Counted from the stretch's first letter, positions 3,131 to 47,965 are shown. The stretch: 47,965 nt of DNA from an uncultured Candidatus Saccharibacteria bacterium (GCA_964443365.1 CAYUCM010000001.1:6467-54431), one strand, 5' to 3'. Numbers and translations are program-made. The notes: generated by a model not told the origin, from the sequence alone.

Positions 3131-3207
3131 TCTAAAAGTATAACATTGGTAAAAAAATATGCACATCAAAAACTCGTGGTTAATATAACATCAGAAGGTT
3201 TGGCAAA

Positions 3208-25387: not shown

Positions 25388-27553
25388 TTAGGAATTAAGA
25401 ACATCGTTCATCTCTCTGCAAAAAACCCTAATTTTATCTAGTAAGGTTTTATCTATAGTTTTATTACTATTTCTTCCTTTACCACCCCCAAATCCTTTGA
25501 TTATTTTTAATAAATCGTCCTCAAGTTTAACTAACGGATGACCCTCGGTTTCTTCATTGGCCAATTTGGCTCTATCTAAAAATCCTCTTATTTTATCACG
25601 CATTGTTTTAATATTATTAAACAAAGAGTTTGTGTTTTGTTGATTGCCAATATCGTTCTCCGTAAAAGAATCTATTATTTCTAGACCCTTTCTGGCACTG
25701 TCAACAAAGCTCAGTATTACTGATTCTTCCAAACCATCAACCACACCGCCCGCCATTCCACCAACCTCTGTGTCTTTTGGTGTTGAGTCAGCAGTGGAAT
25801 CCGCTGTGAATTTTTTAGCCCCATTCTCCTTCGCGCCACCTTTTTCTTCCTTGTCTTTTCGTTCGTTCTCCCAATCCGCTCTTTCTGAACTACCTGGTAG
25901 TGGTGGGGGTGTTATTTTTTTTCCAACAGAAGGTGTGGCTGTTTTCCTTGATGTCTTATTTGGTTTTAATCTATTTACAGCCTCAACATATGGTTTTTTA
26001 TATTCATCAAAACGATTTGTTCTGTTATCTGTGGCCTCCACCAAATCTTCTAGCCTATCACGCACCCTGTTGTAATAACCTAATCTACCACGACTTTCTC
26101 CTATAGCGTTTGAAATTTCATTAATTTTGGTTTTAATAATTTTTCTATCAGCACGACTAAGTCCAGGTGCAGACATTGCCGTCTTAAGATTTAACATTTC
26201 AGTTTCGCCTTTTGTTATAACCCCTTGTAGACGTCCAATTCCATCGTCAATCAAACTTCTTCTTTCTAGATTTTTATAATATTCTGTGTCTTCTCTTATT
26301 TTTTCAGTACGGGAGTCAATATCACCAATAAAATCATCCAATATTCTCTCCTTTCTTTTTCTATAAAACAACATTTGCTCTTTCATATTTTCAGCAGCCT
26401 CACCCGCAAGTTCCCTGCTGTTTTGTTTTTCTAGACCCTCCTTTGCTCTGGTTAACAAATTAACCATATCAATATTTCCATCCCTCCTCGCCCTTTCTAG
26501 TGATTCATTAATTTGTTCCAACTTATTTTCTCTATCTAATTTATCCTGTTCTGATGATTTTTTTGCTTTTTCAGCTTTTCCTATTGCCTTATCTAAATCT
26601 TTTTGTTTTTTGTTTAATAGTAATTCATTCCAACCAAGAACAATATCCAACTTTGTTTCCCTAGGTTTTAGAACAAACAAACTAATTAACCCATCTTTAA
26701 CCCATCCAAACTTACTTTTTAGTTTTGAAAAATGAGTAGAAATAAACCCCTTAGCAGGACCAAACTCCTCTGAGTTTATCATTCTGGTTAATTCATTTTC
26801 TTTATCTATGGAATCTAGAAGTTCTCCTCTGCTCTTCTTGGGTAATGGCGGAGGTTGTGTTTCTGGATTTGTTTTTGGCAAAGCAGGAGGTTGTTGTCTT
26901 GGCTTAACATCATCAGGTATTTCATCATAATATTTTAGCCTATCCCCTTTGTCTCTTTTAAGAGACTCTATTGTGGACAGATTGTTGTCTTCTTGCTCGG
27001 GTATTTTTTTAAATGGTACATTTGGTGTTTTTATTTTAGCATTAGGAACAGGTCCTCCATAGGAAGCACTATAAGCTCCCCAAAAATCAGCTGTCGTTGG
27101 TTCATTTTTTTTAATTCTCTTTCTATTTATGGGTTCATACTTTCCCATTTTTGTGTCCGTGTCTTTTGCGTTTTCAGCCGTAGTGGATAGTGTTTCGTTT
27201 TTAATACCTGAATCTATTAAATTAAGGTCGACATTTTTTTGAATATTAAAACCATCATAAGCCTCACCAGATGTTGTTCTAAAATCATCATCCTGTGACA
27301 CATCAAGGTTTTCAATCCCCCCACCTGGTATTAGTGTTATTTCTTTCGCACCCTCAGGAACATCATCGGGTGCAAGGGTTGATTCTTCAGACATTTTAGA
27401 AAGTTCATATTGACCCTCGTCTGTTAAGGGATCAATTCCACCGCCAAATTCAAGGTTTATTAAATCAACATCCCCCTCTTTTTTAGTTGTTGTTTCTATC
27501 CCTCCTTCTTTGATTTCCTCAGCTGGGTGACCTTGCTCAAATTTTAATTTCAT
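25388..27553 (-). CDS. orphan 721-aa protein with Pro-rich tracts and a long central coiled-coil-like region
   Basis: Long ORF. QQPPALPKTNPETQPPPLPKK at aa 220-240, ITPPPLPG at aa 547-554, a charged heptad-like region at about aa 310-520. No TM seen. Confidence 0.6.
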   Translation of the reverse strand: MKLKFEQGHPAEEIKEGGIETTTKKEGDVDLINLEFGGGIDPLTDEGQYELSKMSEESTLAPDDVPEGAKEITLIPGGGIENLDVSQDDDFRTTSGEAYDGFNIQKNVDLNLIDSGIKNETLSTTAENAKDTDTKMGKYEPINRKRIKKNEPTTADFWGAYSASYGGPVPNAKIKTPNVPFKKIPEQEDNNLSTIESLKRDKGDRLKYYDEIPDDVKPRQQPPALPKTNPETQPPPLPKKSRGELLDSIDKENELTRMINSEEFGPAKGFISTHFSKLKSKFGWVKDGLISLFVLKPRETKLDIVLGWNELLLNKKQKDLDKAIGKAEKAKKSSEQDKLDRENKLEQINESLERARRDGNIDMVNLLTRAKEGLEKQNSRELAGEAAENMKEQMLFYRKRKERILDDFIGDIDSRTEKIREDTEYYKNLERRSLIDDGIGRLQGVITKGETEMLNLKTAMSAPGLSRADRKIIKTKINEISNAIGESRGRLGYYNRVRDRLEDLVEATDNRTNRFDEYKKPYVEAVNRLKPNKTSRKTATPSVGKKITPPPLPGSSERADWENERKDKEEKGGAKENGAKKFTADSTADSTPKDTEVGGMAGGVVDGLEESVILSFVDSARKGLEIIDSFTENDIGNQQNTNSLFNNIKTMRDKIRGFLDRAKLANEETEGHPLVKLEDDLLKIIKGFGGGKGRNSNKTIDKTLLDKIRVFCREMNDVLNS

Positions 27554-27667: not shown

Positions 27668-29383
27668 ATGACAATACATTTTGACGAGGACAAGCAAAAT
27701 ACAAGAATGAAGCACCTGCTTCAAGAAGAAGAGGAGACGGCTATGGAAATGCTCGCTGAAAGACATGGCTTTACATATATAGACCTATCCAAAGTTCCAA
27801 TCAATCCAGACGGTCTTAAAATAATAGACGAGGAAACAGCAAGAAATAGTCAAACCGCAATATTTGATGTTGTTGGAACAAAGGTTTCTATCGCTGTTCA
27901 CAAACCAGAAGATCCATTAACCCTAGATGTATTAGACACTCTATCCAGAAGGGGTTATAACAATATTATTTTTGTTGCATCAATACATAGTCTAGAAAAA
28001 GCGTGGGAAAGATATAAGGATATTTCTTTTGCTTCAGAAACTGAAGCTGGATCTCTTGAAATATCAAATCAAGAAATTGAAGAACTCCTTGCAAAAGCCC
28101 AAAAAACCGAACAAATTTCAGTTTTGGTAAAAGAAGCCCTTGAAATGAAGAAGACCCACCGTGTTTCAAGGCTACTTTCAGTAATAATGGCCGGTTCTCT
28201 TTCTACAAAATCATCTGACGTACACATAGAGACCGAAGAAAACAGCTCAAGACTAAGGTACAGAATCGACGGCGTATTAACAACTGTTTCTGATTTTGAC
28301 ATGGAAACATATGAATTGTTGCTTTCTCGTATAAAACTTTTATCTGGATTAAAGCTTAATATTAAAGAAAACGCTCAAGATGGTAGATTTACTGTAAAAA
28401 TAAAAAATACAGACATAGAAATTAGAACCTCTACAATACCAGGGGCATACGGAGAATCTATTGTTATGCGTATTCTTAATCCTGAGACAATTATGGTTTC
28501 AATGGACAAATTGGGCATGTCACCAAGATTTTTAGAGGCCGTTAGAAAAGAAATTTCTAGACCAAACGGACTTATTTTAACAACCGGACCAACAGGATCA
28601 GGAAAAACAACAACACTCTATGCGTTTTTACGAGAAGTAGCAAGTCCTGAGTATAAAATAATTACAATTGAAGACCCTGTTGAATATCACCTTCCAGGAA
28701 TCGTACAAACACAAGTTGAAGATCGCAAGGGTTATACATTTGAAGCCGGGCTTAAGTCTGCGATGAGACAAGACCCAGACATTATAATGGTTGGAGAAAT
28801 TAGAGATGCAGAAACAGCAATAACTGCAATTAATGCAGCCTTAACTGGACACCTTGTGTTTTCTACACTACACACCAATAATGCCGCTGGAACATTTACA
28901 AGATTAATTGATCTTGGTGCAGATCCAAAAACTCTGACCTCCGCAATACATGCAGCAATTGCCCAGAGACTCGTTAGGGTTTTATGTGATAAGTGTAAAA
29001 AGAAAATTCCAATACCAGCAGAAAGACAAGCTTTGGTTGATGATGTTTTAGAATCAATTAAGGAAATGGAGGAAGGAAAAGAATTTAACGAGAAGCCAAC
29101 AGAAATTTGTACAGCCGTTGGTTGCGATGTCTGCAATAAAACTGGGTATTCAGACAGAATTGGTATACATGAAATTATATTAACAGACAGTTCAATAGAA
29201 AAAATTGTTAGAGAAAATCCAAGTGAGAGAGAAATCAAAGCGGTGGCTAAAAAACAAGGTTTTCTAGACATGAGACAAGATGGAGTATTGAGAGTTTTGA
29301 GAGGTACAACTTCTTTTGACGAATTAGAGAGAGTGATTGATCTTGCAAAAGATGATTTACCAGAAGCAAATACAGAATTTTAA
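27668..29383 (+). CDS. pilB: type IV pilus assembly ATPase PilB (GspE/PilB family)
   Basis: Walker A TGPTGSGKTTTLYA, Asp box, Walker B DPDIIMVGEIRD, His box LVFSTLHTN, tetracysteine CDKCKK...CDVC. Confidence 0.9.
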   Translation: MTIHFDEDKQNTRMKHLLQEEEETAMEMLAERHGFTYIDLSKVPINPDGLKIIDEETARNSQTAIFDVVGTKVSIAVHKPEDPLTLDVLDTLSRRGYNNIIFVASIHSLEKAWERYKDISFASETEAGSLEISNQEIEELLAKAQKTEQISVLVKEALEMKKTHRVSRLLSVIMAGSLSTKSSDVHIETEENSSRLRYRIDGVLTTVSDFDMETYELLLSRIKLLSGLKLNIKENAQDGRFTVKIKNTDIEIRTSTIPGAYGESIVMRILNPETIMVSMDKLGMSPRFLEAVRKEISRPNGLILTTGPTGSGKTTTLYAFLREVASPEYKIITIEDPVEYHLPGIVQTQVEDRKGYTFEAGLKSAMRQDPDIIMVGEIRDAETAITAINAALTGHLVFSTLHTNNAAGTFTRLIDLGADPKTLTSAIHAAIAQRLVRVLCDKCKKKIPIPAERQALVDDVLESIKEMEEGKEFNEKPTEICTAVGCDVCNKTGYSDRIGIHEIILTDSSIEKIVRENPSEREIKAVAKKQGFLDMRQDGVLRVLRGTTSFDELERVIDLAKDDLPEANTEF

Positions 29384-34655: not shown

Positions 34656-35759
34656 TTAACGATTCATAGGCATCAACAAATACAAGAAATTACTGTTTTC
34701 TCCAATAGGCTTTAGAATCATTGGTTTATTAATTCCACTGAATGAAATAGAAATACTTTCTGAACCAACTGAGTTTAGGGCATCTAATATATATTTATAA
34801 TTAAAATTAATATCTATAGAATCTCCTATAATTTTTCCATTTAAATTGGCTGAATTTTCTCCAATTTCATTGTTTTTTGTTATAATTTCTATATTATTTT
34901 CTTCTTTTCTAACTATAATTTTAATATGGTTAAAGGAATCAGAAAATATTGAACTCATTTTTAAGGTATTTAGAACGTCCTGCTTTAAAACAACAATTTC
35001 TGAAACAAAGTCTTTTGGAATAATCGCTTTATAATTAGGAAAATTTCCTTCTATTATTCTAGAAACCAAATATATATCCCCATAAGATATAGCTATTTGA
35101 TTTTGTTCCATAGTTATAGAAAGGTTTTCATCTACACCTTCAAAAACCCTAATTATTTCAACAGCATTTTTAACTGGTATTAAAATTTGAGAAAAATCTG
35201 GCATCTGTTTTGTTTTTACAGTTTTTTCTGCAAGACGCAAACCATCGGTTGCAACAAACACAATAGAATCCCCTTCTGTGGTCACACAGACACTCGAGAG
35301 CTCTGGTTTAATACTTGATGTGGCAGAACTATACCAAACCGCCTTAACACCCTCTATGAAGGCACCTGCGGGCATACTAAAACCCGAAGAGGTGTCCACG
35401 CTTGGTATTATAGGATAATCATCTGTTGGTAGTGTTTTTATTACCGTATTTGTTTTTGATGTAGAAACTATCAAGCTGCCATCCTTAGAATCCAATTCAA
35501 CATTTTTTTCAGAAGATAAATTATTAAGAAAAGAATTTAGTGTTGATCCTGGAACCGCTACTTCACCCTCTTCATCAATCTTTGCTGTTATTTTAATTTT
35601 TATACCAATATCCAAATTTGTTGCACAAACAAAAAGTCCGTCTTTGTCAGCTTTTAACAAAATACACTTCAAAGAAGGTAGTGAAGCATTCTTGCTGGTT
35701 ATCTTTTCAACCTTAGAAACAGCTTCTGATAATTTTTCTCTTAAGCACTCTAATTTCAT
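34656..35759 (-). CDS. dnaN: DNA polymerase III beta sliding clamp
   Basis: 367 aa. MKLECLREKLSEAVSKVEKITSKNASLPSLKCILLKA... Three-domain length. Directly downstream of dnaA. Confidence 0.9.
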   Translation of the reverse strand: MKLECLREKLSEAVSKVEKITSKNASLPSLKCILLKADKDGLFVCATNLDIGIKIKITAKIDEEGEVAVPGSTLNSFLNNLSSEKNVELDSKDGSLIVSTSKTNTVIKTLPTDDYPIIPSVDTSSGFSMPAGAFIEGVKAVWYSSATSSIKPELSSVCVTTEGDSIVFVATDGLRLAEKTVKTKQMPDFSQILIPVKNAVEIIRVFEGVDENLSITMEQNQIAISYGDIYLVSRIIEGNFPNYKAIIPKDFVSEIVVLKQDVLNTLKMSSIFSDSFNHIKIIVRKEENNIEIITKNNEIGENSANLNGKIIGDSIDINFNYKYILDALNSVGSESISISFSGINKPMILKPIGENSNFLYLLMPMNR

Positions 35760-36123: not shown

Positions 36124-37458
36124 TTAAATCATTGCCCTTATTTGATTGATTTCCGACTGTAATTCTGGATTAATTTTTATCTCATTCTTAATCTTTTCAC
36201 AGGAGTGTATAACTGTTGTGTGATCTCTCCCTCCTAGTTTTTGACCAATTGATGGAAGGGATATGTTGTAGTCCTCTCTTAAAATGTACATAGTTAATTG
36301 TCTAGGTTTAACCACCTCTTGTCTTCTTGTTTTGTTGTAAATAGTATCTTCCTCTAAATTATAGAACGAAGATACAGCCCTAACTACATCCTTAACAGAA
36401 ACTGTTCTGTGGGGTCTTCCCGTGTTTTTTGTGTGTTGTTTAATTTCAGAAAGACTCAAATCTCTACCTTTTAGTTGAGATTGGCAAATTATGGTGTTTA
36501 AAACTCCCTCAAGCTCTCTAATGCTGCCATCTACTGAAGAAGCTAAATAAGAGGCTGTTTCATCAGAAAGGTTAAAATTGTTGATTCTAGCCTTTGTTTT
36601 TAATATTGCCATTCTTGATTCTGTATCTGCTGGTGAAATATCAATAATCATTCCAGACATAAACCTTGATTTTAGGCGATCTTCCAGGTTTGGTAGGTAA
36701 TTTACATGAACATCTGATGAAAAGATGATTTGTTTGTTGTTGTCATATAAATAGTTAAACAAATGGAACAATTCTTCCTGAGTTTTTTCTTTATTGGATA
36801 GAAACTGTATATCGTCCATAATAAAAACGTCATATTTTCTATATTTTTCCTTAAAATTGTTGATTTTTCCAGATTGTAGGGATGTTATATAGTCTGTTGT
36901 GAATTTTTCAGAGGTAACATAAAAAACACGCCTATCTTTATTGTGATTTTTGATATAATTACCCACAGCCTGCATTAAGTGTGTTTTACCCAGTCCTGTG
37001 TTGCCATAGTAAAAAAGAGGGTTATAGGCAACCGGTTTTTTAATGATTGCTTGTGCTGCTGCGTGTGCTAATTCATTAAATTGTCCAACAACGAAGTTTT
37101 CAAAGGTATATCTTGGGTTTAAATTGTCTTCAGGGCTGATAAATAAGCCGCTTAGAGGTAATTCTTTAATAGTTTGACCGTCCTCACTCCCCTCGCCTTC
37201 TTTTTTCTTTTTTTGTGTTGAAATAATGTATTCAATTGATCTAATTGATTCATTTTTTCCTCTCAAAATTTCTAATATTTTTTTATGATATCTTTGAGAT
37301 AGCCATTCTTTAGCAAAAGTGTTTGGAACAGCTAGATAAACCACCCCACCCTCTATCTTGTTGATGTATGTATCCTTAAACCATGTTGAAAAATTAGCTC
37401 TAGAAACTTCAATCTCCATTTGTGCCAATAAATCATCCCATAGTTTTTTAATATCCAT
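36124..37458 (-). CDS. dnaA: chromosomal replication initiator DnaA
   Basis: NPLFYYGNTGLGKTHLMQAVGN Walker A, FIMDDIQFL Walker B, C-terminal DNA-binding SLPSIGQKLGGRDHTTVIHSCEKI. Confidence 0.95.
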   Translation of the reverse strand: MDIKKLWDDLLAQMEIEVSRANFSTWFKDTYINKIEGGVVYLAVPNTFAKEWLSQRYHKKILEILRGKNESIRSIEYIISTQKKKKEGEGSEDGQTIKELPLSGLFISPEDNLNPRYTFENFVVGQFNELAHAAAQAIIKKPVAYNPLFYYGNTGLGKTHLMQAVGNYIKNHNKDRRVFYVTSEKFTTDYITSLQSGKINNFKEKYRKYDVFIMDDIQFLSNKEKTQEELFHLFNYLYDNNKQIIFSSDVHVNYLPNLEDRLKSRFMSGMIIDISPADTESRMAILKTKARINNFNLSDETASYLASSVDGSIRELEGVLNTIICQSQLKGRDLSLSEIKQHTKNTGRPHRTVSVKDVVRAVSSFYNLEEDTIYNKTRRQEVVKPRQLTMYILREDYNISLPSIGQKLGGRDHTTVIHSCEKIKNEIKINPELQSEINQIRAMI

Positions 37459-37527: not shown

Positions 37528-37536
37528 TGTGGATAA
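37528..37536 (-). promoter_or_regulatory. perfect DnaA box
   Basis: tgtggataa is the reverse complement of TTATCCACA. It lies next to a long A/T-only stretch (37541-37580). Confidence 0.7.
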
Positions 37537-37612: not shown

Positions 37613-37753
37613 ATGTCACAAACATACCAACCAAATAAAAGAAAGAGAGCAAAAACACATGGTTTTTTGGCCAGAAAGAAAACACATGGCGGACGCCGTG
37701 TTGTAGCCGCTCGTAGAGCAAAAGGAAGAAAGAAGCTTACAGCTTCAGTCTAA
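37613..37753 (+). CDS. rpmH: ribosomal protein L34 (not in the ORF track; 46 aa)
   Basis: Hand translation: [46 protein letters not shown]-stop. Confidence 0.9.
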
Positions 37754-37765
37754 TCCTATTTTATT

Positions 37766-38137
37766 TTGAAAAAGATGACTAAAATTAAAGGTTTATCTTC
37801 TTCACAAATTAGTTTAATTATGAAAAAAGGAGGGGTCTGCAACTCAGGCTCTTTTCTTTTTAAAACACATATAATTAATAATTCTATAGAAGGAGGGGTT
37901 TTGAGGGGTTCTTTTATTATTTCGAAAAAGAAAACAAAAAAAGCCGTAGATAGAAACAAAATCAAAAGAATTTTTAAAGAGTCTTTTTTAGAGGCCTTTA
38001 ATAATTTAAGCCCTACTAATACAGCAATAGATATTCCCCCTTTTATCGTTCTAATCAAAACAAACAAAAGTAAATTTTTACATTTAACAGAAGAAATTAG
38101 GCAATTTCTACTAAAAAATTATATAATTAAACAATGA
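37766..38137 (+). CDS. rnpA: RNase P protein component
   Basis: KKAVDRNKIKRIFKESF motif; position between rpmH and yidC. Its TGA stop overlaps the yidC ATG (ATGA). Confidence 0.8.
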   Translation: MKKMTKIKGLSSSQISLIMKKGGVCNSGSFLFKTHIINNSIEGGVLRGSFIISKKKTKKAVDRNKIKRIFKESFLEAFNNLSPTNTAIDIPPFIVLIKTNKSKFLHLTEEIRQFLLKNYIIKQ

Positions 38138-38850
38138 TAACGAATTTTTTTACAAACACTTTCTATATTCCCCTTTATAATGGATTGGTATTTATAATTA
38201 ATCATACACCAGGGTTTGATCTTGGTTTGGCGGTTATTGTTTTCACTTGTATTGTTAAGTTTATATTGATGCCCCTTTCTAAAAAATCTGTTGTTACACA
38301 GTTAAAAATGAAAGAGCTGGAGCCTGAATTAAATAAACTAAAAGAACAATATGCAAAAAACAAAGAAGAACAAGCAAGAAAGTTATTGGAATTTTACAGA
38401 GAAAATAATTTAAACCCATTTTCTGGAATACTTTTAATTTTAATACAAATTCCTATTATCTTTTCTTTGGCAGCTATTTTTTATAGAGCCGGACTTCCTG
38501 TAATAAATGTTGATGCTTTGTATTCATTCGTTTCTAATCCTGAAAGTGTAAATGTTTTATTTTTAGGCTTCTTAGATATAACAAAAAAGAGTATTTGGTT
38601 AAGTATTTTGGTGGGAATAACACAATTCGTTCAAATAAGATATTCTGTTCCAGCCTTTAAATCAACAGGAAAAGGTGGTGCACAAGAAGATTTTGCCAAA
38701 AGTATGAATGTTCAAATGAGATATACTATGCCCGCCATTGTTTTTTTAATCTCATTTAGTTTAACATCAGCCATTTCTTTGTATTGGATTACTTCAAACG
38801 TTTTTGCTATTGCACAAGAAATGTACTTTAGAAAAACCGTTAAGAAATAA
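38134..38850 (+). CDS. yidC: membrane protein insertase YidC (short, monoderm-type)
   Basis: PLSKKSVVTQLKMKELEPELNKLKEQY...LEFYRENNLNPFSG..LLILIQIPIIFSL. Confidence 0.85.
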   Translation: MITNFFTNTFYIPLYNGLVFIINHTPGFDLGLAVIVFTCIVKFILMPLSKKSVVTQLKMKELEPELNKLKEQYAKNKEEQARKLLEFYRENNLNPFSGILLILIQIPIIFSLAAIFYRAGLPVINVDALYSFVSNPESVNVLFLGFLDITKKSIWLSILVGITQFVQIRYSVPAFKSTGKGGAQEDFAKSMNVQMRYTMPAIVFLISFSLTSAISLYWITSNVFAIAQEMYFRKTVKK

Positions 38851-38867
38851 CAGAATAAACATTGTAT

Positions 38868-38893
38868 TAAAAAACCACCGTCGGTGGTTTTTT
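38868..38893. terminator. bidirectional terminator between yidC and the T4SS-like operon
   Basis: aaaaaccac-cgtcg-gtggttttt. Confidence 0.75.
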
Positions 38894-38898
38894 AATAG

Positions 38899-40338
38899 TT
38901 AATTTTGTTTTGTTGATTTGGTGGAGGTTGCTTTGGCGCCTGTGTTTGTTGTATTTTTTGTTTCTACAGATTTGGTACTCGTTGCCGCTTCTGTTTTTGG
39001 TTTTGGGATTTCAAAGCCCCACAGACTAAGATCTTTTTTGTTTGAAAAAATAATATAATCCTCTTTTTTGCTTAAATTCATATTAATAATATCTAGTCCC
39101 GTCTTAACAAAATCTTTTGTTACAACAAGAAGTTTGTTTTCTTGTGTTTCTACATTAATTTTCCAAATATTGTCGTCAAAAAACACTAGCCCTTGATACC
39201 ATGCGTCTGGATATGGTGCATATGTAATAGCTTCACCTGCGGCACAATAAACCACACTCTTTTCTAATTTTGACCAAACACATTTTTCAGGTAAAACCTT
39301 TAAAAACAAATCTTTTGTGCTGTTATTTTTTGTGTCTAAAACAGAAAGTTTTATAGACCCATCAACAGATTCCCCAACTAATACCTTGAGTCCGTCCGGA
39401 GACATTAGGGTGGTTAGCCCCGCCTTTTCGCCAACAAGTCTTTTAAATGATTTAATTTTTGGATTAATTGTATATGCAAAACCATTGGCATATGCTGAGG
39501 GTTTTGTGTTTAAAACAATAATGTCTTTGTTTGGCCAAGACAATAACCACTCTCTAAATGGCGATTTATATATTATTACAGCTCCTGTACCGTCTAATTT
39601 GCTTGTTTTAATGATAGATTCAACACCTTTTGTTTCTGTATAATAGACGAGAGAATCTTTTTCTGGTGAAATTGCAGGGAAAAGCATATTATACTCCAAG
39701 TCTTTGGTTTTTAGAGATAACTCTGTAGAGGTTGCATCTTGATAAAACAATGTTGCAAGCTTTGTTTCTATTATGTCGGAGTTTTTTAATAAACCTCTAA
39801 ATATTATATTTTCTCCCTTCAAATCAAACAAAGATTCCAACATCCTTGTTTGTGTTGAATTTGATATTCTTAAATTTTTTAACGAAGAAGAAGCCGTCTC
39901 ATAAACATAACCTGTTCCCCTTTCTACAAAACGTATTTTTTCTTCCTGACCAATAATTTTAGGTTTTATAATTTGTTTTTTTCCAACATTTTTACTACTA
40001 CTTGCTATTAACGTGCTGCTTGTTGAATAAATGTCTTTTGTTATAAATGTAAAACCAGATACGGGAGAAGAGTGAATCATTCTAAGTGGTGGAACCTGTG
40101 GTGTGGATGTTGATGTTGGTTTACTTGTTTCTGGTTCTTGATTGGAAGTTGAATTTGTTGTGTCTTTTGGTAAATCTGTTCTAACCCCACCAACTCCACC
40201 AAAAATATTTTTATCAGTATTATTTACTGGTGTTAGTTCTGTTGTTGATTTGTTTGTATAGAAATAAAGACCAAGAATAACACCAGCGGCCAAACTTAGT
40301 ATTAGAATTATTATTATAAAAAGTTTTGTTTTTGACAT
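38899..40338 (-). CDS. secreted/anchored 479-aa protein with Ser/Thr-rich linkers (last gene of the T4SS-like operon)
   Basis: N-terminal TM LFIIIILILSLAAGVILGLYFY. A Thr/Ser/Pro-rich segment, then a large beta-rich-looking domain, then a Thr/Lys-rich tail. Confidence 0.55.
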   Translation of the reverse strand: MSKTKLFIIIILILSLAAGVILGLYFYTNKSTTELTPVNNTDKNIFGGVGGVRTDLPKDTTNSTSNQEPETSKPTSTSTPQVPPLRMIHSSPVSGFTFITKDIYSTSSTLIASSSKNVGKKQIIKPKIIGQEEKIRFVERGTGYVYETASSSLKNLRISNSTQTRMLESLFDLKGENIIFRGLLKNSDIIETKLATLFYQDATSTELSLKTKDLEYNMLFPAISPEKDSLVYYTETKGVESIIKTSKLDGTGAVIIYKSPFREWLLSWPNKDIIVLNTKPSAYANGFAYTINPKIKSFKRLVGEKAGLTTLMSPDGLKVLVGESVDGSIKLSVLDTKNNSTKDLFLKVLPEKCVWSKLEKSVVYCAAGEAITYAPYPDAWYQGLVFFDDNIWKINVETQENKLLVVTKDFVKTGLDIINMNLSKKEDYIIFSNKKDLSLWGFEIPKPKTEAATSTKSVETKNTTNTGAKATSTKSTKQN

Positions 40339-40342
40339 GTTT

Positions 40343-40942
40343 TTACTTTGTTAATAATAATGTTTCTACATTGTTTGTTTGTAATACAAGTTCTGGGTTG
40401 ATTGTATAAAGAATAACATATGAAAATAGTGCGATTAAAAGCCCGGCAATGGCTGATTTAATCATGTCCCGCCCCTTTTCTGTTCCAGAAATAGAGTCTG
40501 TTGTACCAAGTCTTATTCCCCCAAGTGTTATCATTACTATTGCGAGAGCAACAGCCGCCATTATTCCAATTTTATACAATCTAGAAAAAAATTCCCCAAG
40601 CGCAGGTAATTTTAATATACCCTTCTCCTCCCCCAGTAGTCCATTTAAAGGGGCAAGCATACAATAGTTGTATTTATTGTCTCTTGCGCTTATAGAACAA
40701 TCAGAACCTGAACTATTGTTTGTTGTTTTTGATGCTGTGGGTGTTATAACAGGAGCTTGATTTTGTGTTGATTCTGCAAATTCAGGAAAGAGTTGATTAA
40801 AAACCTCACCGTTTGTACTTTGACCATTTATTCCATCCACGTATGGGGTTGTCATTGCGGCCAGGCCTATATTAAAGGCAAAAACAAACATAATCAAAAC
40901 AGTCGCTATAACTCTAAAAGTTTTTTTAATCGAAAAAATCAT
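40343..40942 (-). CDS. VirB2/TrbC-like T4SS pilin candidate
   Basis: Signal peptide IATVLIMFVFAFNIGLAAM. The C-terminus has two hydrophobic helices (IGIMAAVALAIVMITLGGI and AIAGLLIALFSYVILYTI) separated by a short charged loop, which is a VirB2-like topology. Confidence 0.45.
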   Translation of the reverse strand: MIFSIKKTFRVIATVLIMFVFAFNIGLAAMTTPYVDGINGQSTNGEVFNQLFPEFAESTQNQAPVITPTASKTTNNSSGSDCSISARDNKYNYCMLAPLNGLLGEEKGILKLPALGEFFSRLYKIGIMAAVALAIVMITLGGIRLGTTDSISGTEKGRDMIKSAIAGLLIALFSYVILYTINPELVLQTNNVETLLLTK

Positions 40943-40980
40943 TACTAATATAATACAACAAATTAAGCTTTGTGTATATT

Positions 40981-42024
40981 TTAATTTGCACCAAATATAA
41001 ATTCTAAAATATTTTTTGTAGATTGGGTAATGTATTTAGGATTGATTATATCAACAAGAATTGATGCTGAACTTATAGCCTCTTTTTCATTTTGTTTAAC
41101 CACAATAGAGCTTGTGTTTGATGGCAGGCTTATTTTTTCTGAATTAATATACCAAGTATAATTAAGATCCGTATTTTTGTTGTTTACGCTAAAATTATAA
41201 GGAAAAACACTGATTTTAGCTTCTTTTCTCTTTTTTAAATCGATTTGATTTCTCAGAGAATAATTGAACATTATGCCGTTTGTTGGGTTGTCTTCGTAAA
41301 ATAGTACAAAAGAATTTTTTTCTGTTAAATCAACACTGCCGGAGCCTTTTTTGCTGCTATTGTTTACAGGATAGGCCTCCACCTCTATTGTTGTGTCCTG
41401 CGATAATATGTCCGCAATATATTTAAAAGAGTTTTTTCCCTTACCAGAATAATCCCCCTGTACTTCTCCATTGACTATCCATTTATAGACAACAGACGAA
41501 TCCGGAGTTCTGCTCTTTCCATCGATAAAATTAGGAATAGTAACCATATTTACGGCCGATTCCGCAGAAAACAGAGCCTTTCCTTTATAAAATGGTGGTG
41601 TATAAGTTTCTGCTTGCCACAATAAATCTATATTTGTTGGGTTAAAAACAAAGGTTTTGCTTATTTTTGGTTGATTTTTTGGATAAATATTAACAATAAT
41701 TTTGCTCTCTGTTCCATTTCCAACCTGAAAAACAAATCTCTTTTCACCAACACCTCTTAGTTGTTGTTTGTTGTTTAAAATCCACTGCACATCTGTTGAA
41801 TCAAGGTCTAAGCTGTATGTTTCTAAAGAAATTGTGACAGTTTCTCCTGGTTTTGGGCTTTCTGGGGAAATGTTAATATCCAGCTGTTCTTTAATTTCTG
41901 GTATTTCTCCTGGCACAGGAATATAAGCTTCCGCCTCAACCCTTTTGTTTTGTATAGAAAAAATAATTACAAAAACAGCAATGAGAGTTAAAAAAATAAA
42001 ATGTTTTTTCAATAGAAAATTCAT
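40981..42024 (-). CDS. secreted 347-aa hypothetical protein
   Basis: N-terminal TM/signal FIFLTLIAVFVIIFSI; beta-rich sequence beyond it. No family recognised. Confidence 0.5.
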   Translation of the reverse strand: MNFLLKKHFIFLTLIAVFVIIFSIQNKRVEAEAYIPVPGEIPEIKEQLDINISPESPKPGETVTISLETYSLDLDSTDVQWILNNKQQLRGVGEKRFVFQVGNGTESKIIVNIYPKNQPKISKTFVFNPTNIDLLWQAETYTPPFYKGKALFSAESAVNMVTIPNFIDGKSRTPDSSVVYKWIVNGEVQGDYSGKGKNSFKYIADILSQDTTIEVEAYPVNNSSKKGSGSVDLTEKNSFVLFYEDNPTNGIMFNYSLRNQIDLKKRKEAKISVFPYNFSVNNKNTDLNYTWYINSEKISLPSNTSSIVVKQNEKEAISSASILVDIINPKYITQSTKNILEFIFGAN

Positions 42025-42053
42025 TAGTATATATTATACACCAATATTATTTT

Positions 42054-42539
42054 TTATGAACGATCATTTTGTAAAAACTGTTGAATTTTATTTTGTTCAG
42101 GGTTTCCTACTAATACCGCCACATCCTTTTTGTCATTCCCGTTATCATTATTATCATCTTTTTGAATCATTGGACCAAGGTTTAATATCACACTTAATAC
42201 AAAACCAGGAAGTGCGTTTAAAACAGGTATGGTTTCTATTAAGGCGCTTGATCCAAATTTAGAACTGTTTTTTAAATGAAATTTTAAGCCCAATTTTCTA
42301 TATATGAAGAAAAACAAACCAAAGCCGGGTGCCGTAATGAAAACCGCGGATATAAAACCACCAACCACCACTATTAAGTTTATTAAGGCAGACACAGTAT
42401 CAAAAACAATCGCTAAAGCAATCATCTTATAAAAAGTACCTCTTGTAATGGTTTTTTCTTCAGAAGATGAATCTCCATTTGTCTGATCTTCCATTTCCTG
42501 TGCGAGTTGTTGTTGGGCTAATGCCTGGTCCTCGTTCAT
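42054..42539 (-). CDS. multi-TM small membrane protein
   Basis: 161 aa: acidic N-terminus, then hydrophobic segments MIALAIVFDTVSALINLIVVVGGFISAVFI, GFGLFFFIY and IPVLNALPGFVLSVILNL. Confidence 0.5.
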   Translation of the reverse strand: MNEDQALAQQQLAQEMEDQTNGDSSSEEKTITRGTFYKMIALAIVFDTVSALINLIVVVGGFISAVFITAPGFGLFFFIYRKLGLKFHLKNSSKFGSSALIETIPVLNALPGFVLSVILNLGPMIQKDDNNDNGNDKKDVAVLVGNPEQNKIQQFLQNDRS

Positions 42540-42566
42540 AAATTATATTTTATTAAACCCGGTTGT

Positions 42567-44414
42567 TTAAAATCGATTATTTAAGCCCTCGGCCTCCTTT
42601 CTTCTCATTTCAGCCAGCTCCGCCTTTTCTTTCTTAATCTGAAGAACCTCAGATGGTTTTGATGTAATTATTTGATTTTCTGTATATGATGCTATAACCT
42701 TGATTGCAACGTGTTTTTGTCCAGCAAAGAACATTCCCTCTCCCACATCTGATTCCAATAATAAATATTTTTCCTCCTCTGTTAAATTGAATGTTTTTTG
42801 AATAATATCAATTGATGATGGCGATTGTTTTAACAGAATTTGAATTGAAGAGTTTGAAATAATCGGTAATCCATAAGGTGATTTAAGAAAGTCCTCAACG
42901 TCTTGTGTAATTGTTGCAAGTCCTAGATAATATTTTCTACCTCTTTTTGCAAGCCCCAACAAGAACGCGGCTGTATCTTCAGATTTCATCAGATACCACG
43001 CCTCGTCAATAACCAAAAGCCTCTTTTTAAGTTCTTTTCTAATGGCGTTCCATATGTAATGCATTACTATATACATGGCGACAGGTTTTAATTCCTCCTC
43101 CATGTCTCTAAGGGAGAAAACCACAAACTTTTTATTAATATCAATATTTGATGGTCTGTTTATAAAACCAGCCCAAGTTCCTTTTGTATATTTTGTAATT
43201 CTTTGAACCAAAGACTCTCCACCCTCCATTCCACCTAAAACCAATTCAAAATCAGACATCAAAGGAGGTTCAGCTGCTGCAAAATTAGATTCAGCGGTAA
43301 TATCCTTAAGAGCATAGGTTTCTGTTATTGCTCTGTCTATAACAGCATCTTCTTCAGGTGTTAGTCCACCAAGCATTATTCTAAATAGGCCCACAAGATT
43401 AATAATATTTGAACGAAGAACGTCCGCAGAAGACTCCCCCTCTCTTGGTACCGGCAAATCAAATGGATTGATATGATGCTCTGATGTTAGAGAAATATTA
43501 AAGTATCTTCCACCTGTTGCTTCTGCTAAATATTCATATTCTCTTTCTGGATCAAGAACAATAACATCGGTATCAAACATCATTGATCTAATAATCTCTA
43601 ATTTTGTTTGGTATGACTTACCAGAACCAGCCTTTGCAAACGTTACAGAGTTATAGTTTTCTAGAGAAAATCTATCAAACAAGATAAGACTAGAGTTGTG
43701 TCTGTTTATTCCATACAAAATTCCCTTGTCTGATGTAAGGTCGAATGAAATGAAGGGAAATATACTTGATAAGGGTTCTGAGTTTAATTTGGAGTGAACT
43801 CCAAGCTTGTCCTCTCCTATTGGTAAAACACTTTGAAAGCCTTGTTCTTGTTGAAAGAGTGCCGGTTTAATGAAAACCAAATTTGCTTCTAGTATTGATT
43901 TTATTTCCGATTCTATCTTGTCTAACTCTTGCTCATTTTCTCCATATATTGAAATATATAAACCTATGTCAAAAAGTCTTTCTTGGGCTTGCTGTAGCTT
44001 GTCTCTTAATTCTTCAAGGTCTTGATATGCTGTATCAAGCTTAGGATCTCTAACAAGACCTTTTTGTTCTCTCGTGCTAATGTCCACTTCAATATCAGCA
44101 ACCTTTTTTGTAAATTGTCTAAGTATTGTTGCTGTATCTATTGGGTGAATAAAAATTGAAATATCAAAAACTTTGTCTAGATTAATTATTGGCGCAAACC
44201 AGTTTTCAGATAGAAATCTTGGGTATGAAATAACAAAGAATGTTCTAACAATCTTTTCTCCAAGATTAATTGTTTTAGGGCTAATTTTAAGGCCAGATGG
44301 AGCTATGATGTCTTGAAGTTCAAGTACACCAGATTGATAAATTTCTTTAGGTAAAATAGAACTTATTGGAGAGGGTTCTTCTTTTTTGGGTTTTAAAAAG
44401 TCTAGCAAGCTCAT
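42567..44414 (-). CDS. virB4: VirB4/TraE-type T4SS ATPase
   Basis: Walker A FAKAGSGKSYQTK, Walker B RLLVIDEAWYLM, and the ITQDVEDF motif region, preceded by an N-domain about 250 aa long. Confidence 0.8.
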   Translation of the reverse strand: MSLLDFLKPKKEEPSPISSILPKEIYQSGVLELQDIIAPSGLKISPKTINLGEKIVRTFFVISYPRFLSENWFAPIINLDKVFDISIFIHPIDTATILRQFTKKVADIEVDISTREQKGLVRDPKLDTAYQDLEELRDKLQQAQERLFDIGLYISIYGENEQELDKIESEIKSILEANLVFIKPALFQQEQGFQSVLPIGEDKLGVHSKLNSEPLSSIFPFISFDLTSDKGILYGINRHNSSLILFDRFSLENYNSVTFAKAGSGKSYQTKLEIIRSMMFDTDVIVLDPEREYEYLAEATGGRYFNISLTSEHHINPFDLPVPREGESSADVLRSNIINLVGLFRIMLGGLTPEEDAVIDRAITETYALKDITAESNFAAAEPPLMSDFELVLGGMEGGESLVQRITKYTKGTWAGFINRPSNIDINKKFVVFSLRDMEEELKPVAMYIVMHYIWNAIRKELKKRLLVIDEAWYLMKSEDTAAFLLGLAKRGRKYYLGLATITQDVEDFLKSPYGLPIISNSSIQILLKQSPSSIDIIQKTFNLTEEEKYLLLESDVGEGMFFAGQKHVAIKVIASYTENQIITSKPSEVLQIKKEKAELAEMRRKEAEGLNNRF

Positions 44415-44441
44415 AATATTTTAATTGTATGATAAAGTTGA

Positions 44442-45089
44442 TTAATTTCCAACTGAAATTGGTTTTTCTACCGTTCCTGGATTAAATAATTTATAAAAGA
44501 ATTCTATAGCCTCCTCTGTTCCCAGTTGCGCCGTTCTAATTCCGCATCTTATAAGTCCTTGTTCTATAACAGAAGTTCTTTGCTGTAATTGACTTTTGTA
44601 TTCTTCAAATCGTAAAAATTCTTCCTCATCTTCCTGTGCTTTGTTTTTCTTTTTTCCAAAAAAACCAGAAATTGCACCATTCTTTTGATTCATTATTGTT
44701 GGCGAAAACGGCACAACTACAAAGAAGCTTTTTGTCATAATATTTACAGACTCCGTTAGTCCCCTTATAAAGTCTATATATTCTCTTGTTTGGGTCTTCA
44801 TTAACTCACCAGATTGATCTTTAATTCTGTCTTCTAGTAAGTTAATATAAGGTGTTATGTCCAATCTTCTTGATTGAACAAATATTTGTATTGAAAAATT
44901 GATAGAATTTATAAAGTTTTGAAATTGATATATAACAGATTGCTGTTCTTCTTGGGATTTAAGCGCAAAGTTTATTGACGAAGCTAAAAGTATAGCCCTC
45001 ATTGATCCGTCCTTTAATACAACAATTCCATCCCTAATTTCTTTTATGGGAACAAATTCTTGTGTTGGTTTTGTGTTGTTGTCTACCAT
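44442..45089 (-). CDS. 215-aa protein resembling the extreme N-terminal domain of VirB4-like ATPases
   Basis: PIKEIRDGIVVLKDGSMRAILLASSINFALKSQEEQQSVIYQFQNFINSINFSIQIFVQSRRLD. Pattern recognition only. Confidence 0.35.
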   Translation of the reverse strand: MVDNNTKPTQEFVPIKEIRDGIVVLKDGSMRAILLASSINFALKSQEEQQSVIYQFQNFINSINFSIQIFVQSRRLDITPYINLLEDRIKDQSGELMKTQTREYIDFIRGLTESVNIMTKSFFVVVPFSPTIMNQKNGAISGFFGKKKNKAQEDEEEFLRFEEYKSQLQQRTSVIEQGLIRCGIRTAQLGTEEAIEFFYKLFNPGTVEKPISVGN

Positions 45090-45109
45090 TTTTTTAATTA
45101 TATATTTAT

Positions 45110-45538
45110 TTATTCAAAATTATCGACTTGTTTGCTTTGCTTTTCGTTAATATCCAAACTCCACGCCAAATCCTTTAGCTTACTACTGGTCATTTTTGTG
45201 TGAGATGCTGGAGCTATTTTGGTTTTTTTGTCCTCTTGCACCATTTGTTTTACAGGCTTGTCGATTTTTTTGTATGTATAAAGCCTGTGAGAAAAAATAA
45301 AGTAAAAGGCCGCTTCTAGTGTGACAATAAATGGTCTGTCATTAACTCTATAAAAAGCTAAAGCCAAACCAAGCATCAATACAGGAATCATTACGATTAT
45401 TGCAATGAAATGAGGTAATAATCTATACAGCACAAAAGCAATTCCTACTCCACCGACAAGATAAACAAATTGTTTGAATGTTAATTGACCAAACAGTTTT
45501 TCATCTTCTTCAATAAACTGAGGTGTTTGATATCTCAT
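45110..45538 (-). CDS. PrgI/VirB3-like small membrane protein
   Basis: QFIEEDEKLFGQLTFKQFVYLVGGVGIAFVLY plus a second TM. It lies just upstream of the VirB4-like genes, as in Gram-positive T4SS loci. Confidence 0.55.
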   Translation of the reverse strand: MRYQTPQFIEEDEKLFGQLTFKQFVYLVGGVGIAFVLYRLLPHFIAIIVMIPVLMLGLALAFYRVNDRPFIVTLEAAFYFIFSHRLYTYKKIDKPVKQMVQEDKKTKIAPASHTKMTSSKLKDLAWSLDINEKQSKQVDNFE

Positions 45539-45575
45539 GCGTAAAATAATTATAGCATGAAATTAATTCTTGTGT

Positions 45576-45917
45576 TTATTCCTGTGGCAATTCTTGTGTT
45601 TGTAGTTGTCTCAAGCTGTCTTTTATGGGGTGTATTATCAATTCATTAATATCTTTTGATATTTCTATGGCCTCAGACTTTGATATTTGAACCTCTTCTT
45701 CTATTTTATTAATAATATCTGCTGAATTTACTTCTCCAAAAACAATTTTTGCCAGTAGGGCCTCTAATTTTGCTGATTGGTCTATGTGTAATTTATGTTT
45801 CTTGCTTATTTGAGCAAGTGTTTCATCATAATTACTTTGATTTATTACCTGTTTCAGGTCATCAGATATTGAATCGTAAGCCTTCTGATTGTTTCTTGTT
45901 AGTGATATTGCTGTCAT
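45576..45917 (-). CDS. hypothetical 113-aa helical protein
   Basis: ORF in the operon. Shares a SKK-HK-x-IDQ-x-A...G...I...I segment with the next gene upstream. Confidence 0.5.
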   Translation of the reverse strand: MTAISLTRNNQKAYDSISDDLKQVINQSNYDETLAQISKKHKLHIDQSAKLEALLAKIVFGEVNSADIINKIEEEVQISKSEAIEISKDINELIIHPIKDSLRQLQTQELPQE

Positions 45918-45919
45918 TT

Positions 45920-46621
45920 TTATAGTTGTTCTCTGTAGGGGTCTACTTTATAATATGTCGATTTTTCTGTTTGTGTTACAGGTTGATTTAATTTTGCCGT
46001 CATTTGATCTTCTTTTTTGAGTGAGTTTTTGTTTGGCATTACGGATATGGCTGGCGTTGAAGGGGTGGTTTCTGGTGTTGGTGGTGAGACTGTTGTTGAT
46101 TGTATTGCTGGTTCGGTTGGTAATTGTGCTTGATATGTTGTATTTGCAGACATGTTCTTTTTTAATATTTCCAACGACGAACTCACAAGCGGTGTTGGAT
46201 TTTCAATTTCTTTTAGAATGTCTTCCGCGGTTTCTTCTTTTTGGGGTTCTTTATTAAAATCAACCTGTTCTTCTTTGGGTTCTAAATCTTCGTCAACAAA
46301 AAGGTCGTCCCATGGCTTATCTGCCCCCTTGAGATTGTTTGGAATTAATATTTTTTCATCGATTTCCTGATAAATTTCTTGATAAAAATCTGGAATCTTT
46401 CTCTTTATCAGATCTAACAATTCTGATTTTGCGAAAAAACCAAGCGCCACAAGTGTGATTGTGTTTGCAATAGATTCTATTGCGTTTTGATCAATAATTT
46501 TTCTTTTAGAAAACACATTAATCAAGTCTTGATCTGTTTCTAAATCATATAGTTTGTTTCTTAGCGCCTCAGGCAGATTAGACATTCTTTTTCCTATTTC
46601 TTGCGATTCTATTTTTTGCAT
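45920..46621 (-). CDS. hypothetical 233-aa protein (helical N-domain, Pro/Thr-rich tail)
   Basis: ORF in the operon. The N-domain is related to 45576..45917. The tail reads TTVSPPTPETTPSTPAISV. Confidence 0.5.
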   Translation of the reverse strand: MQKIESQEIGKRMSNLPEALRNKLYDLETDQDLINVFSKRKIIDQNAIESIANTITLVALGFFAKSELLDLIKRKIPDFYQEIYQEIDEKILIPNNLKGADKPWDDLFVDEDLEPKEEQVDFNKEPQKEETAEDILKEIENPTPLVSSSLEILKKNMSANTTYQAQLPTEPAIQSTTVSPPTPETTPSTPAISVMPNKNSLKKEDQMTAKLNQPVTQTEKSTYYKVDPYREQL

Positions 46622-46669
46622 TTTTTTATTTTAATTATTTTTTGGAAATCTATAATTTATAAATCTATA

Positions 46670-47953
46670 TTACGAAGATGCTGAAGCCTGTTTCTTCAGG
46701 TCCTCTATCTTGTTGTTATAAGTTTCTAGCTTGTCTCTGACTTTTTCAATTTCATTTACGTGGGCCTGAGCGTCAGCCAGACTGTCGTGGGCATTTTGAA
46801 ATGCCTGTTGATAGTTGTTGTAATTAGCTTGGGCTCGGGCTTTATCAATGTCGCTAGACATGGGATTGCTTAATGTTGTATTTAAAGCAAGCAAAGAATT
46901 GTCTCGTCGCCCTCTTGCTGTGTTCTTGGCCGCTCTAAGTGCAATAATACTCGTTGGTGCGGCGCTGGTTGTTATATCTGAATGATAATTTGAAATAAGC
47001 TCCATCATCTTTTTCGTCCTCTCCTCTGGTTTAAGGGTTCTGTCGTTAAGATATCTATTAGCTTTGGCAATATCGGTTGGGTTTTGTAGTATGGCGGGTA
47101 TTTTTCCAATTATACCAGCATGGTTTCCCCCGGCATCTAGGTGATAAAGTTCTCTGTGTATTTTATTTACTGCTTCTGCAGCACTCTTCTTTTTTGATGT
47201 ATCAAGTTGATCCATTGCTGCAAGCTCTGCTCCCTTGAACATAAATCCACCTCTTGGCATTTCTCCTTCGCTTGTTAAACCATAAGCCCTGTTTGTCGCC
47301 GCTTTTAGTTTTTTTGCATTGTCTCTTTGTGTGGATGTAATACCGGTTCTGTCTTCATATTCAGTATCAGTTTCGTGGTTTAGTTTGTCCACAGCATAGC
47401 CGGTTCTTTTAAAGTAATCCAACGCAGATTCCCCAGATCTTTGTTTAAGTGTTGATGTTGCAAGTTTTGCTCTCTCTTCAATTGCTTTCTTGTCCGTATC
47501 AACCCTACTTCTATATGAACCGCTGCCGCCCAACTTGGATTGAGCTAGTTTGTCTAATCCCTGAAGAGATCTGCTTCCAATAAATCTTCCAATAGCACTG
47601 TTTCCCGTTGCCATTTTTGCCAGAGCTGTACTTTTTGAGGCTTTGTTGAATGCCCAACTTGCGGGCGCCGTTGCTCTATTGACTGCAAAGTTTTTACCCC
47701 ATTTTCCCATCGCACTACTCCAGCCTTGCATTTTCTTTGACCCCATTGCTCCAAAGTTTGCCGCAACAATTAAGGGCATTGTTAAAAGAACACACATAAA
47801 TACAAAATAGAATACATTTCCAATCGCACTAAAATCTTCTGCTGTAAATAAAGCCATAAAACCACCTTTCTTACTATTGTCTCCCCATAACATTTCAAGT
47901 GCAATAAACATCATTATCATGTATGCTGGCGCAAACAAGAGATTTGTTCTCAT
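46670..47953 (-). CDS. membrane protein with a long hydrophilic coiled-coil tail; possible VirB6/TrbL-like component, probably 5'-truncated by the window
   Basis: TMs LLFAPAYMIMMFIALEMLW and NVFYFVFMCVLLTMPLIVAANFGAM. The frame stays open (WWKK) from the ATG at 47953 to the window edge at 47965. Confidence 0.35.
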   Translation of the reverse strand: MRTNLLFAPAYMIMMFIALEMLWGDNSKKGGFMALFTAEDFSAIGNVFYFVFMCVLLTMPLIVAANFGAMGSKKMQGWSSAMGKWGKNFAVNRATAPASWAFNKASKSTALAKMATGNSAIGRFIGSRSLQGLDKLAQSKLGGSGSYRSRVDTDKKAIEERAKLATSTLKQRSGESALDYFKRTGYAVDKLNHETDTEYEDRTGITSTQRDNAKKLKAATNRAYGLTSEGEMPRGGFMFKGAELAAMDQLDTSKKKSAAEAVNKIHRELYHLDAGGNHAGIIGKIPAILQNPTDIAKANRYLNDRTLKPEERTKKMMELISNYHSDITTSAAPTSIIALRAAKNTARGRRDNSLLALNTTLSNPMSSDIDKARAQANYNNYQQAFQNAHDSLADAQAHVNEIEKVRDKLETYNNKIEDLKKQASASS

Positions 47954-47965
47954 TTTTTTCCACCA

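Follow-up and report, generated by a model that had tools for sequence, protein, structure and literature searches.

A likely chromosomally fixed type IV secretion locus next to dnaA in a Paceibacteria-type Patescibacterium

Patescibacteria represent a large share of bacterial diversity. They are attached to host cells, have almost no biosynthesis of their own, and nearly all of them carry a cluster of type IV secretion system (T4SS) genes. One such cluster is found at positions 38899-47965 of a 47,965 nt stretch of DNA from an uncultured bacterium (GCA_964443365.1 CAYUCM010000001.1:6467-54431), which is called the window in what follows. The question raised by this locus is whether it is a mobile conjugative element or a fixed part of the chromosome and, if it is fixed, what the machine does for its bearer. 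We consider it likely that the locus is a vertically inherited, chromosomally fixed T4SS of a Paceibacteria-type Patescibacterium, descended from a monoderm conjugation apparatus (mating-pair formation class FATA, MPF-FATA, with a VirB4 ATPase of the CD1110 type), no longer mobile and most likely serving episymbiosis. Its core proteins belong to known families, its VirB4 is split over two genes, its gene order is collinear with that of monoderm modules, its chromosomal site is fixed and no mobility genes are linked to it.

The locus consists of ten open reading frames (ORFs), all in the same direction on the minus strand, which cover positions 38899-47965 with intergenic gaps of 2-48 nt. We number them G1 to G10, starting from the gene transcribed first. 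An earlier note, written from the DNA sequence with no database searches, had already described this arrangement and had recognized a VirB4-type ATPase, a PrgI/VirB3-like protein with two membrane helices and a protein with the topology of a VirB2/TrbC pilin. All three stand, as detailed below.

The motor of the system is G6 (42567-44414, minus strand), which codes for a VirB4 ATPase of 615 amino acids (aa). The protein has the central domain and the P-loop domain and is of the CD1110 or MPF-FATA type. It matches the NCBIfam model of the CD1110 family, NF045971, with E = 2.5e-110 and 369.9 bits (cutoff 325), and the match covers positions 178-734 of the 752 in the profile. Among NCBIfam models, those for the VirB4 proteins of CD1110 and of Mycoplasma integrated conjugative elements (ICEs) score best. 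There are also Pfam matches to P-loop_TraG (E = 4.7e-25) and AAA_10, and the translation holds intact Walker A (AGSGKSY) and Walker B (LLVIDEAW) motifs. The locus thus contains a VirB4-family ATPase with both motifs and belongs to the T4SSs. A VirB4 scan of species-representative genomes found 584 relatives, of which we have taken the best 80. Nearly all of these are titled Patescibacteria metagenome-assembled genomes, of Paceibacteria or Parcubacteria type, or unnamed bacteria, and their VirB4 is 76-96% identical to G6. The nearest plasmid VirB4 proteins all come from Firmicutes or Actinobacteria, with at most 35% identity. Quinonero-Coronel et al. (2025, PMC12102498) have described a monophyletic clade of Patescibacteria VirB4 nested in MPF-FATA. 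G6 would be placed in this clade on the basis of their study, to which we only add family models and identities.

According to the same authors, TrsD is the commonest component associated with this VirB4, and PrgI, VirB6 and VirB2-like pilins are also found near virB4. We have detected counterparts of these components at the locus, with different degrees of support. G5 (44442-45089, minus strand, 215 aa) is a TrsD-like protein directly beside VirB4. Its match to the TrsD/TraD model NF041427 (E = 5.8e-8) is below the 200-bit cutoff of that model; the VirB4_plasma model is matched with E = 6.2e-11 over profile positions 99-279. Residues 4-205 of G5 align with residues 22-196 of the full-length VirB4 of the clostridial plasmid pCDC3875 (E = 4e-8), and the orthologue in a near-identical relative (L082) matches the TraC-like family PF26593. 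Because G6 only covers profile positions 178-734 and G5 matches N-terminal parts of VirB4, G5 is the missing N-terminal domain of this ATPase: VirB4 is split over two genes, a TrsD-like N-domain and the 615-aa ATPase. G4 (45110-45538, minus strand, 142 aa), two genes upstream of virB4, belongs to the PrgI/VirB3 family (Pfam PF12666, E = 1e-10, 42.4 bits, cutoff 27) and has one hydrophobic hairpin of two helices, in a stretch at residues 19-66.

G9 (40343-40942, minus strand, 199 aa) is a VirB2/TrbC-like T4SS pilin, as judged from its orthologues and its topology. Among the 44 positional orthologues of G9, 36 match the T4SS pilin family PF18895 (best E = 4.7e-10). G9 itself has a signal or anchor, which a low-complexity stretch separates from two hydrophobic helices; the hydrophobic segments are at residues 2-35, 118-148 and 159-187. 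Many of its orthologues (L005-L076) are longer, with 300-480 aa, and some of them contain peptidoglycan-hydrolase domains: CHAP in three, NlpC/P60 in two, and SLT, 3D and Amidase_5 in one each. These are fusions of a pilin with a VirB1-like protein; the 199-aa copy in the window has no such domain. Some related genomes have two tandem pilin genes.

G1 extends from 46670 to the edge of the window at 47965, on the minus strand (the listed ORF is 46670-47953). Its reading frame is open to the last base, so the gene is truncated and only the C-terminal 431 codons of an extended, putatively VirB6-like polytopic membrane protein are present. In L082 its orthologue is 758 aa long or more and passes from several hydrophobic helices into a long charged tail. 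G1 combines a polytopic membrane domain with a long hydrophilic coiled-coil tail and lies upstream of PrgI, in the same place as virB6 in pCDC3875 and other Gram-positive modules. The earlier note had proposed a VirB6/TrbL protein here. Position and topology fit this proposal. As regards sequence, TrbL matches are weak and found in 4 of 29 orthologues (best E = 2.7e-4; the 676-aa orthologue in L004 matches TrbL PF04610 with E = 0.005), and an hhalign comparison of the G1 orthologues with a VirB6 protein of the CD1112 family is not significant (E = 0.12).

Is this an ordinary ICE, or the remnant of one? In such a case the mobility genes would lie just beyond the window. The VirB4 protein is a member of CD1110, a family of conjugative elements, and the window ends within the first gene of the cluster, both of which favor this idea. 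Domain scans of the cluster and of the other sizeable window ORFs reveal no relaxase, no VirD4-type or TcpA protein, no VirB11 and no integrase, as the earlier note had stated. That note had also pointed out what would speak for an ICE: mobility genes and att repeats just upstream. The closest relative which reaches past the end of the window (L004) encodes, over 5.5 kb on the upstream side of its VirB6-like gene, three proteins without a family match, two of them envelope proteins, then ksgA and a UvrD-type helicase. Neither a relaxase nor a coupling protein is found upstream in L004 or among sampled proteins encoded upstream in L012, L019, L024 and L071, and L004 has neither an upstream integrase nor att-like flanking repeats. 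There is no compositional break either: the GC content of the cluster is 0.31-0.34, the same as in the neighboring genes. In published data relaxases are rare in Patescibacteria, and a relaxase close to virB4 is found in only 15 cases in a dataset of 3,035 genomes (PMC12102498).

The distribution of the locus points in the same direction. About 45 species-level genomes have it at one and the same place in the chromosome, and the loci with full flanks have a constant order: UvrD-type helicase, KsgA, an anchored protein of about 300 aa (X300), a secreted protein of about 550 aa (X550), the VirB6-like protein, G2/G3, PrgI, TrsD, VirB4, G7, G8, pilin and G10, and then yidC on the opposite strand, dnaA and dnaN. 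Synteny had been suggested as a check in the earlier note, and it holds: the accessory genes keep their places as well as the core genes do. The locus has neither a linked relaxase and coupling protein nor the integrase, att sites and patchy distribution of a conjugative element. Synteny and flanking genes largely refute the ICE, and we consider it hardly credible.

Sequence conservation adds to this picture. In loci picked by VirB4 similarity (L005-L075), a choice which may slightly inflate the difference between VirB4 and DnaA, the median identities over 46 genomes are 79% for VirB4, 60% for TrsD (with orthologues in all 46), 58% for DnaA, 47% for PrgI (44 of 46), 45% for DnaN, 43% for YidC, 38% for the pilin, 31% for G8 and 30% for G10. 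Judging by these identities, VirB4 evolves more slowly than DnaA, an unusually strong constraint for a secretion ATPase. A motor which is more constrained than the replication initiator, with exposed parts which diverge fast, fits a vertically inherited core machine, not a mobile element.

The upstream genes merit a separate comment. In L004 (2020-5257), and also in L012, L024 and L071, two or three conserved genes lie between ksgA and the VirB6-like gene, in the region which corresponds to DNA beyond the window. These are the genes for X300 and X550 and, in some genomes, a third one coding for about 100 aa. Neither X300 nor X550 matches any Pfam family convincingly. All of these genes probably belong to one unit with the cluster.

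How does this locus compare with known systems? The closest ones are the T4SSs of the Patescibacteria clade, including Southlakia epibionticum. The core order VirB6-like, PrgI, TrsD, VirB4 is the same, a VirB2-like pilin of the PF18895 family is present, and there is no linked relaxase or type IV coupling protein (T4CP). The chromosomal setting near dnaA, dnaN, rnpA, rpmH and ksgA is also alike; dnaA, dnaN, rnpA, rpmH and ksgA have been reported nearby in Paceibacteria and Microgenomatia (PMC12102498). In S. epibionticum, transposon sequencing has revealed that epibiotic growth requires the locus SEML1_0006-0019, pilins included (Wang et al. 2023, PMC10633639). This locus codes for a VirB6-like protein, PrgI, VirB4, a lysozyme and an array of pilins, with one gene in the place of TrsD; it lies by dnaA and recF and is adjoined by the PEGA immunoglobulin (Ig)-like protein SEML1_0005. 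There are differences. Southlakia has an array of six pilins, whereas a single pilin gene is found here. Its downstream genes code for a 1113-aa protein, the lysozyme and the PEGA protein, while here we find G7, the triple-Ig protein G8 and the TolB-like protein G10. In addition, the operon in the window has no hydrolase, and PrgI is preceded by a duplicated cytoplasmic gene (G2 and G3).

Gram-positive MPF-FATA systems are more distant. G6 passes the cutoff of the CD1110 VirB4 family (CTn2/CD1110), and VirB6, PrgI, VirB4 and a small protein are collinear with pCDC3875. The order in this Clostridium botulinum plasmid is VirD4, hypothetical protein, VirB6, PrgI, hypothetical protein, VirB4, small protein and SLT hydrolase. 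A separate gene for a TrsD-type N-domain is also found in pGO1, in the trsC-trsD-trsE arrangement of pGO1 and pIP501 (NF041427; PMC12102498). On the other hand, VirB4 identity does not exceed 35%, and the locus in the window has no VirD4, no relaxase and no SLT or CHAP hydrolase. Gram-positive systems do not have a VirB2-like pilin (PMC12857230), and this locus does. They are carried by plasmids or ICEs, while this locus is fixed in the chromosome. With respect to the VirB/VirD4 system of Agrobacterium (MPF-T), functional analogues of VirB2 (the pilin), VirB3, VirB4 and VirB6 are present. The outer-membrane core formed by VirB7, VirB9 and VirB10 is absent, in a monoderm envelope, and no counterpart of VirB5, VirB8, VirB11 or VirD4 has been detected at the locus.

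The remaining genes are the accessory ones. The earlier note had considered several genes of the cluster unrecognizable. This does not hold for the 215-aa protein, the TrsD-family N-domain described above, and the 479-aa and 347-aa proteins may now be given folds; for the proteins of 161, 113 and 233 aa we have found no library match, so the statement stands. PHROGs do not provide a match for any of the unknown proteins of the cluster.

G8 (40981-42024, minus strand, 347 aa) is confidently predicted to be a membrane-anchored extracytoplasmic rod with three tandem Ig or fibronectin type III (FnIII)-like domains. Its AlphaFold2 model (predicted local distance difference test, pLDDT, 89.5) shows three beta-sandwiches behind a helix at residues 4-26. 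Foldseek matches (E about 5e-9) are Hoc, fibronectin FnIII, titin and adhesin stalks, all of them generic rod-like modules. G8 is present in 45 of the 46 genomes and has 360 homologues, all unnamed.

G10 (38899-40338, minus strand, 479 aa) is also a confident prediction: the model (pLDDT 86.9) corresponds to a membrane-anchored extracytoplasmic TolB-like beta-propeller. Residues 3-28 form a helix and 34-66 a disordered Ser/Thr-rich linker, while the region 85-443 is all beta structure. In Foldseek, TolB 7mx5 ranks first (E = 9e-10), and a sequence profile finds it too (E = 3.3e-4). Cysteines C353 and C365 are invariant across homologues and a few of these contain a PG_binding_1 domain; both features fit an extracytoplasmic, wall-associated location. 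The likeness to the TolB protein of Tol-Pal is limited to the beta-propeller with its PD40-like blades, for which TolB is the best match by fold and by sequence profile. Nevertheless, TM-scores reach only about 0.36-0.44, with some 10% sequence identity. In place of the TolB N-terminal domain, G10 carries a membrane anchor at its N-terminus and the disordered linker, so that only the propeller matches, and no tol or pal genes are found near it. The organism is thought to be monoderm, unlike the setting of Tol-Pal. G10 does not look like the TolB of a Tol-Pal system, as the TolB N-terminal domain and a Tol-Pal operon context are missing. An NTF2 fold of the VirB8 type is not seen in the models of G8 or G10.

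G7 (42054-42539, minus strand, 161 aa) is a membrane protein with about three hydrophobic helices, in segments at residues 35-80 and 99-125. Its family is found in 56 related loci, directly after virB4 (position +1), and no match is found in Pfam, NCBIfam or PHROG. We have considered G7 as a second pilin and rejected this on the basis of an hhalign comparison with the pilin. No relation was found either between G7, G2, G3 or G9 and the accessory proteins of the pCDC3875 conjugation module.

G2 (45920-46621, minus strand, 233 aa) and G3 (45576-45917, minus strand, 113 aa) are cytoplasmic paralogues, with G3 corresponding to the N-terminal domain of G2. G2 has no hydrophobic segments and shares its N-terminal helical domain with G3. 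Iterative hidden Markov model searches starting from either protein reach the same 68 proteins in 65 loci, just upstream of PrgI. The family has an invariant motif, TAEDILKEIENPT, and a C-terminal motif, YYKVDPYRE. It is a narrow family: a profile search matches about 210 clusters among 1.84 billion representatives. G2 has no match in Pfam, NCBIfam or PHROG, and the longer fused forms of the family do not carry any known domain. We have examined whether DPYRE could be a C-terminal tag shared by several proteins and have rejected it, since among the other proteins of the window and of related loci that we have checked the motif is confined to the G2/G3 family. The pair of paralogues (45576-46621 in the window, 7629-8727 in L004, 2291-3435 in L082) corresponds to a single gene coding for 200-380 aa in most relatives.

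Such a set of exposed proteins suggests another explanation: an adhesive surface filament, built by the ATPase and the pilin, with no translocation of a substrate. The pilin, the Ig rod and the propeller are surface-exposed and evolve fast (30-38% identity), as expected for host recognition, and there is no T4CP to recruit substrates. The organism, however, already has genes for adhesive type IV pili (PilB, PilM), and a large VirB6-like channel protein has been kept, which argues for a conduit. We consider a purely adhesive role unlikely.

Following our preferred interpretation, a T4SS fixed in the chromosome and serving episymbiosis, the parts might work together as follows. The VirB6-like protein, PrgI and TrsD with VirB4 would form a membrane translocon and its motor, and this motor would build a tube or pilus across the cell wall by polymerising G9. 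G7, G8 and G10, together with the two upstream envelope proteins, may constitute a lineage-specific wall-spanning scaffold or contact apparatus, standing in for the VirB8, VirB1 and adhesins of Gram-positive systems. G2 and G3 could be partners on the cytoplasmic side. Such a machine would serve for contact with the host cell and for transfer of macromolecules to or from the host, rather than for conjugation. We favor an episymbiotic role over conjugation because there is no linked relaxase or coupling protein, the neighborhood is made of essential genes, and the ATPase is more conserved than DnaA. A 2026 preprint describes tubular structures at the parasite-host interface which may be T4SS pili.

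Several points weigh against this interpretation. The G9 copy in the window matches PF18895 with E = 0.004 and 17.5 bits, below the cutoff of 26.6. G1 is VirB6-like by position, topology and weak TrbL matches, so that its sequence support is weak. Pfam and NCBIfam scans find no VirB1-like hydrolase domain in the operon of the window, even if some orthologous pilins carry one. The roles suggested for G7, G8, G10 and G2/G3 have no other basis than fold, topology and conserved position. Essentiality would be carried over by analogy from Southlakia, which belongs to another class, Saccharimonadia, and has different downstream accessory genes. Finally, VirD4-like genes usually lie elsewhere in most Patescibacteria genomes (PMC12102498); a VirD4-like protein may thus be encoded elsewhere in this genome, in which case DNA could still be transferred.

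Transfer could also be inward. The cluster might be a DNA-uptake machine, like ComB of Helicobacter or Ced of archaea, which imports DNA from the host or the environment as a source of nucleotides. VirB4 has a weak, partial match to the DNA-import ATPase CedB (E = 1.3e-9), no relaxase or T4CP is present, and the organism belongs to a class without nucleotide synthesis (PMC10633639). In another class, ABY1, T4SS genes are co-located with comF, recG and radA (PMC12102498). Nevertheless, in Southlakia deletion of comEC ends transformation and does not affect viability, while the T4SS is essential (PMC12857230). ComEC-dependent DNA uptake therefore does not explain essentiality. Besides, domain scans do not detect ComEC or any DNA-binding component in the operon. 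We find a role in DNA uptake quite unlikely.

A bolder version of the episymbiotic interpretation may be considered. The accessory set (G7, G8, G10, G2/G3 with its DPYRE tail, X300 and X550) could be a previously undescribed wall-spanning, substrate-handling apparatus. It would do the work of VirB8, VirB1, an adhesin and a coupling protein, and the conjugation motor would have become an essential pilus for import of food from the host. We would give this idea some chance, if a small one.

The earlier proposal of a minimal monoderm T4SS-type machine is thus supported, with the precision that the absence of a coupling protein refers to the window; its conclusion had already been published for other Patescibacteria (PMC12102498, PMC10633639). 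A chromosomal, origin-adjacent T4SS of monoderm ancestry, with a pilin and no relaxase or T4CP, is in fact already described for this group (PMC12102498, PMC10633639, PMC12857230). The T4SSs of Patescibacteria are the first reported to be essential to their own carrier, and a role of the pilus as a conduit for uptake or signaling has been speculated (PMC12857230). What is new here is modest: G5 as the N-domain of VirB4, the folds of G10 and G8, the paralogy of G2 and G3, a unit two genes longer, and a VirB4 slower than DnaA. The locus provides a clean example from Paceibacteria, with nothing conceptually new beyond the published surveys. The two confident extracytoplasmic folds, G8 and G10, could guide the interpretation of cryo-electron tomography and pull-down work.

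The chromosomal setting is as the earlier note had described it. The gene yidC (38134-38850), on the strand opposite to the cluster and convergent with G10, is preceded by rnpA (37766-38137) and rpmH (37614-37754). The position of dnaA (36124-37458) is based on its own translation and on the conserved adjacency to yidC and dnaN in related loci; dnaN is found at 34656-35759. Between yidC and G10 there is a bidirectional intrinsic terminator (38865-38897, both strands), a hairpin with a 15-bp stem and a T-run on either strand, which is the shared terminator proposed in that note. No comparable minus-strand terminator is found inside the cluster. A promoter scan of the locus only gives a signal at background level, and no tRNA or Rfam elements are found near it. 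The sole perfect DnaA box in the window (TTATCCACA) is located at 37528-37536, in the AT-rich spacer between dnaA and rpmH. Matches similar to DnaA boxes, including those with one mismatch, are no more frequent across the window than expected by chance, and the GC skew of the window does not give a sharp origin signal. Since DnaA-box counts and GC skew are uninformative, adjacency to the origin is deduced from the dnaA-dnaN and rpmH-rnpA-yidC neighborhood.

The window also contains type IV pilus genes. A PilB-type ATPase is encoded at 27668-29383 on the plus strand (T2SSE, E = 7e-119), and PilM (E = 7e-28) and a weak PilN are found at 10201-11328 and 9645-10196, both on the minus strand. From PilB, PilM and PilN it follows that the organism has both type IV pilus and T4SS genes within 48 kb of the origin region. 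According to Pfam scans, other sizeable ORFs in the window are housekeeping and type IV pilus genes. Six minus-strand ORFs have no Pfam match at E <= 0.01: 671-1861 (396 aa), 1922-3169 (415 aa), 7427-8479 (350 aa), 19914-20705 (263 aa), 23692-24966 (424 aa) and 25388-27553 (721 aa). The last two are divergent from pilB.

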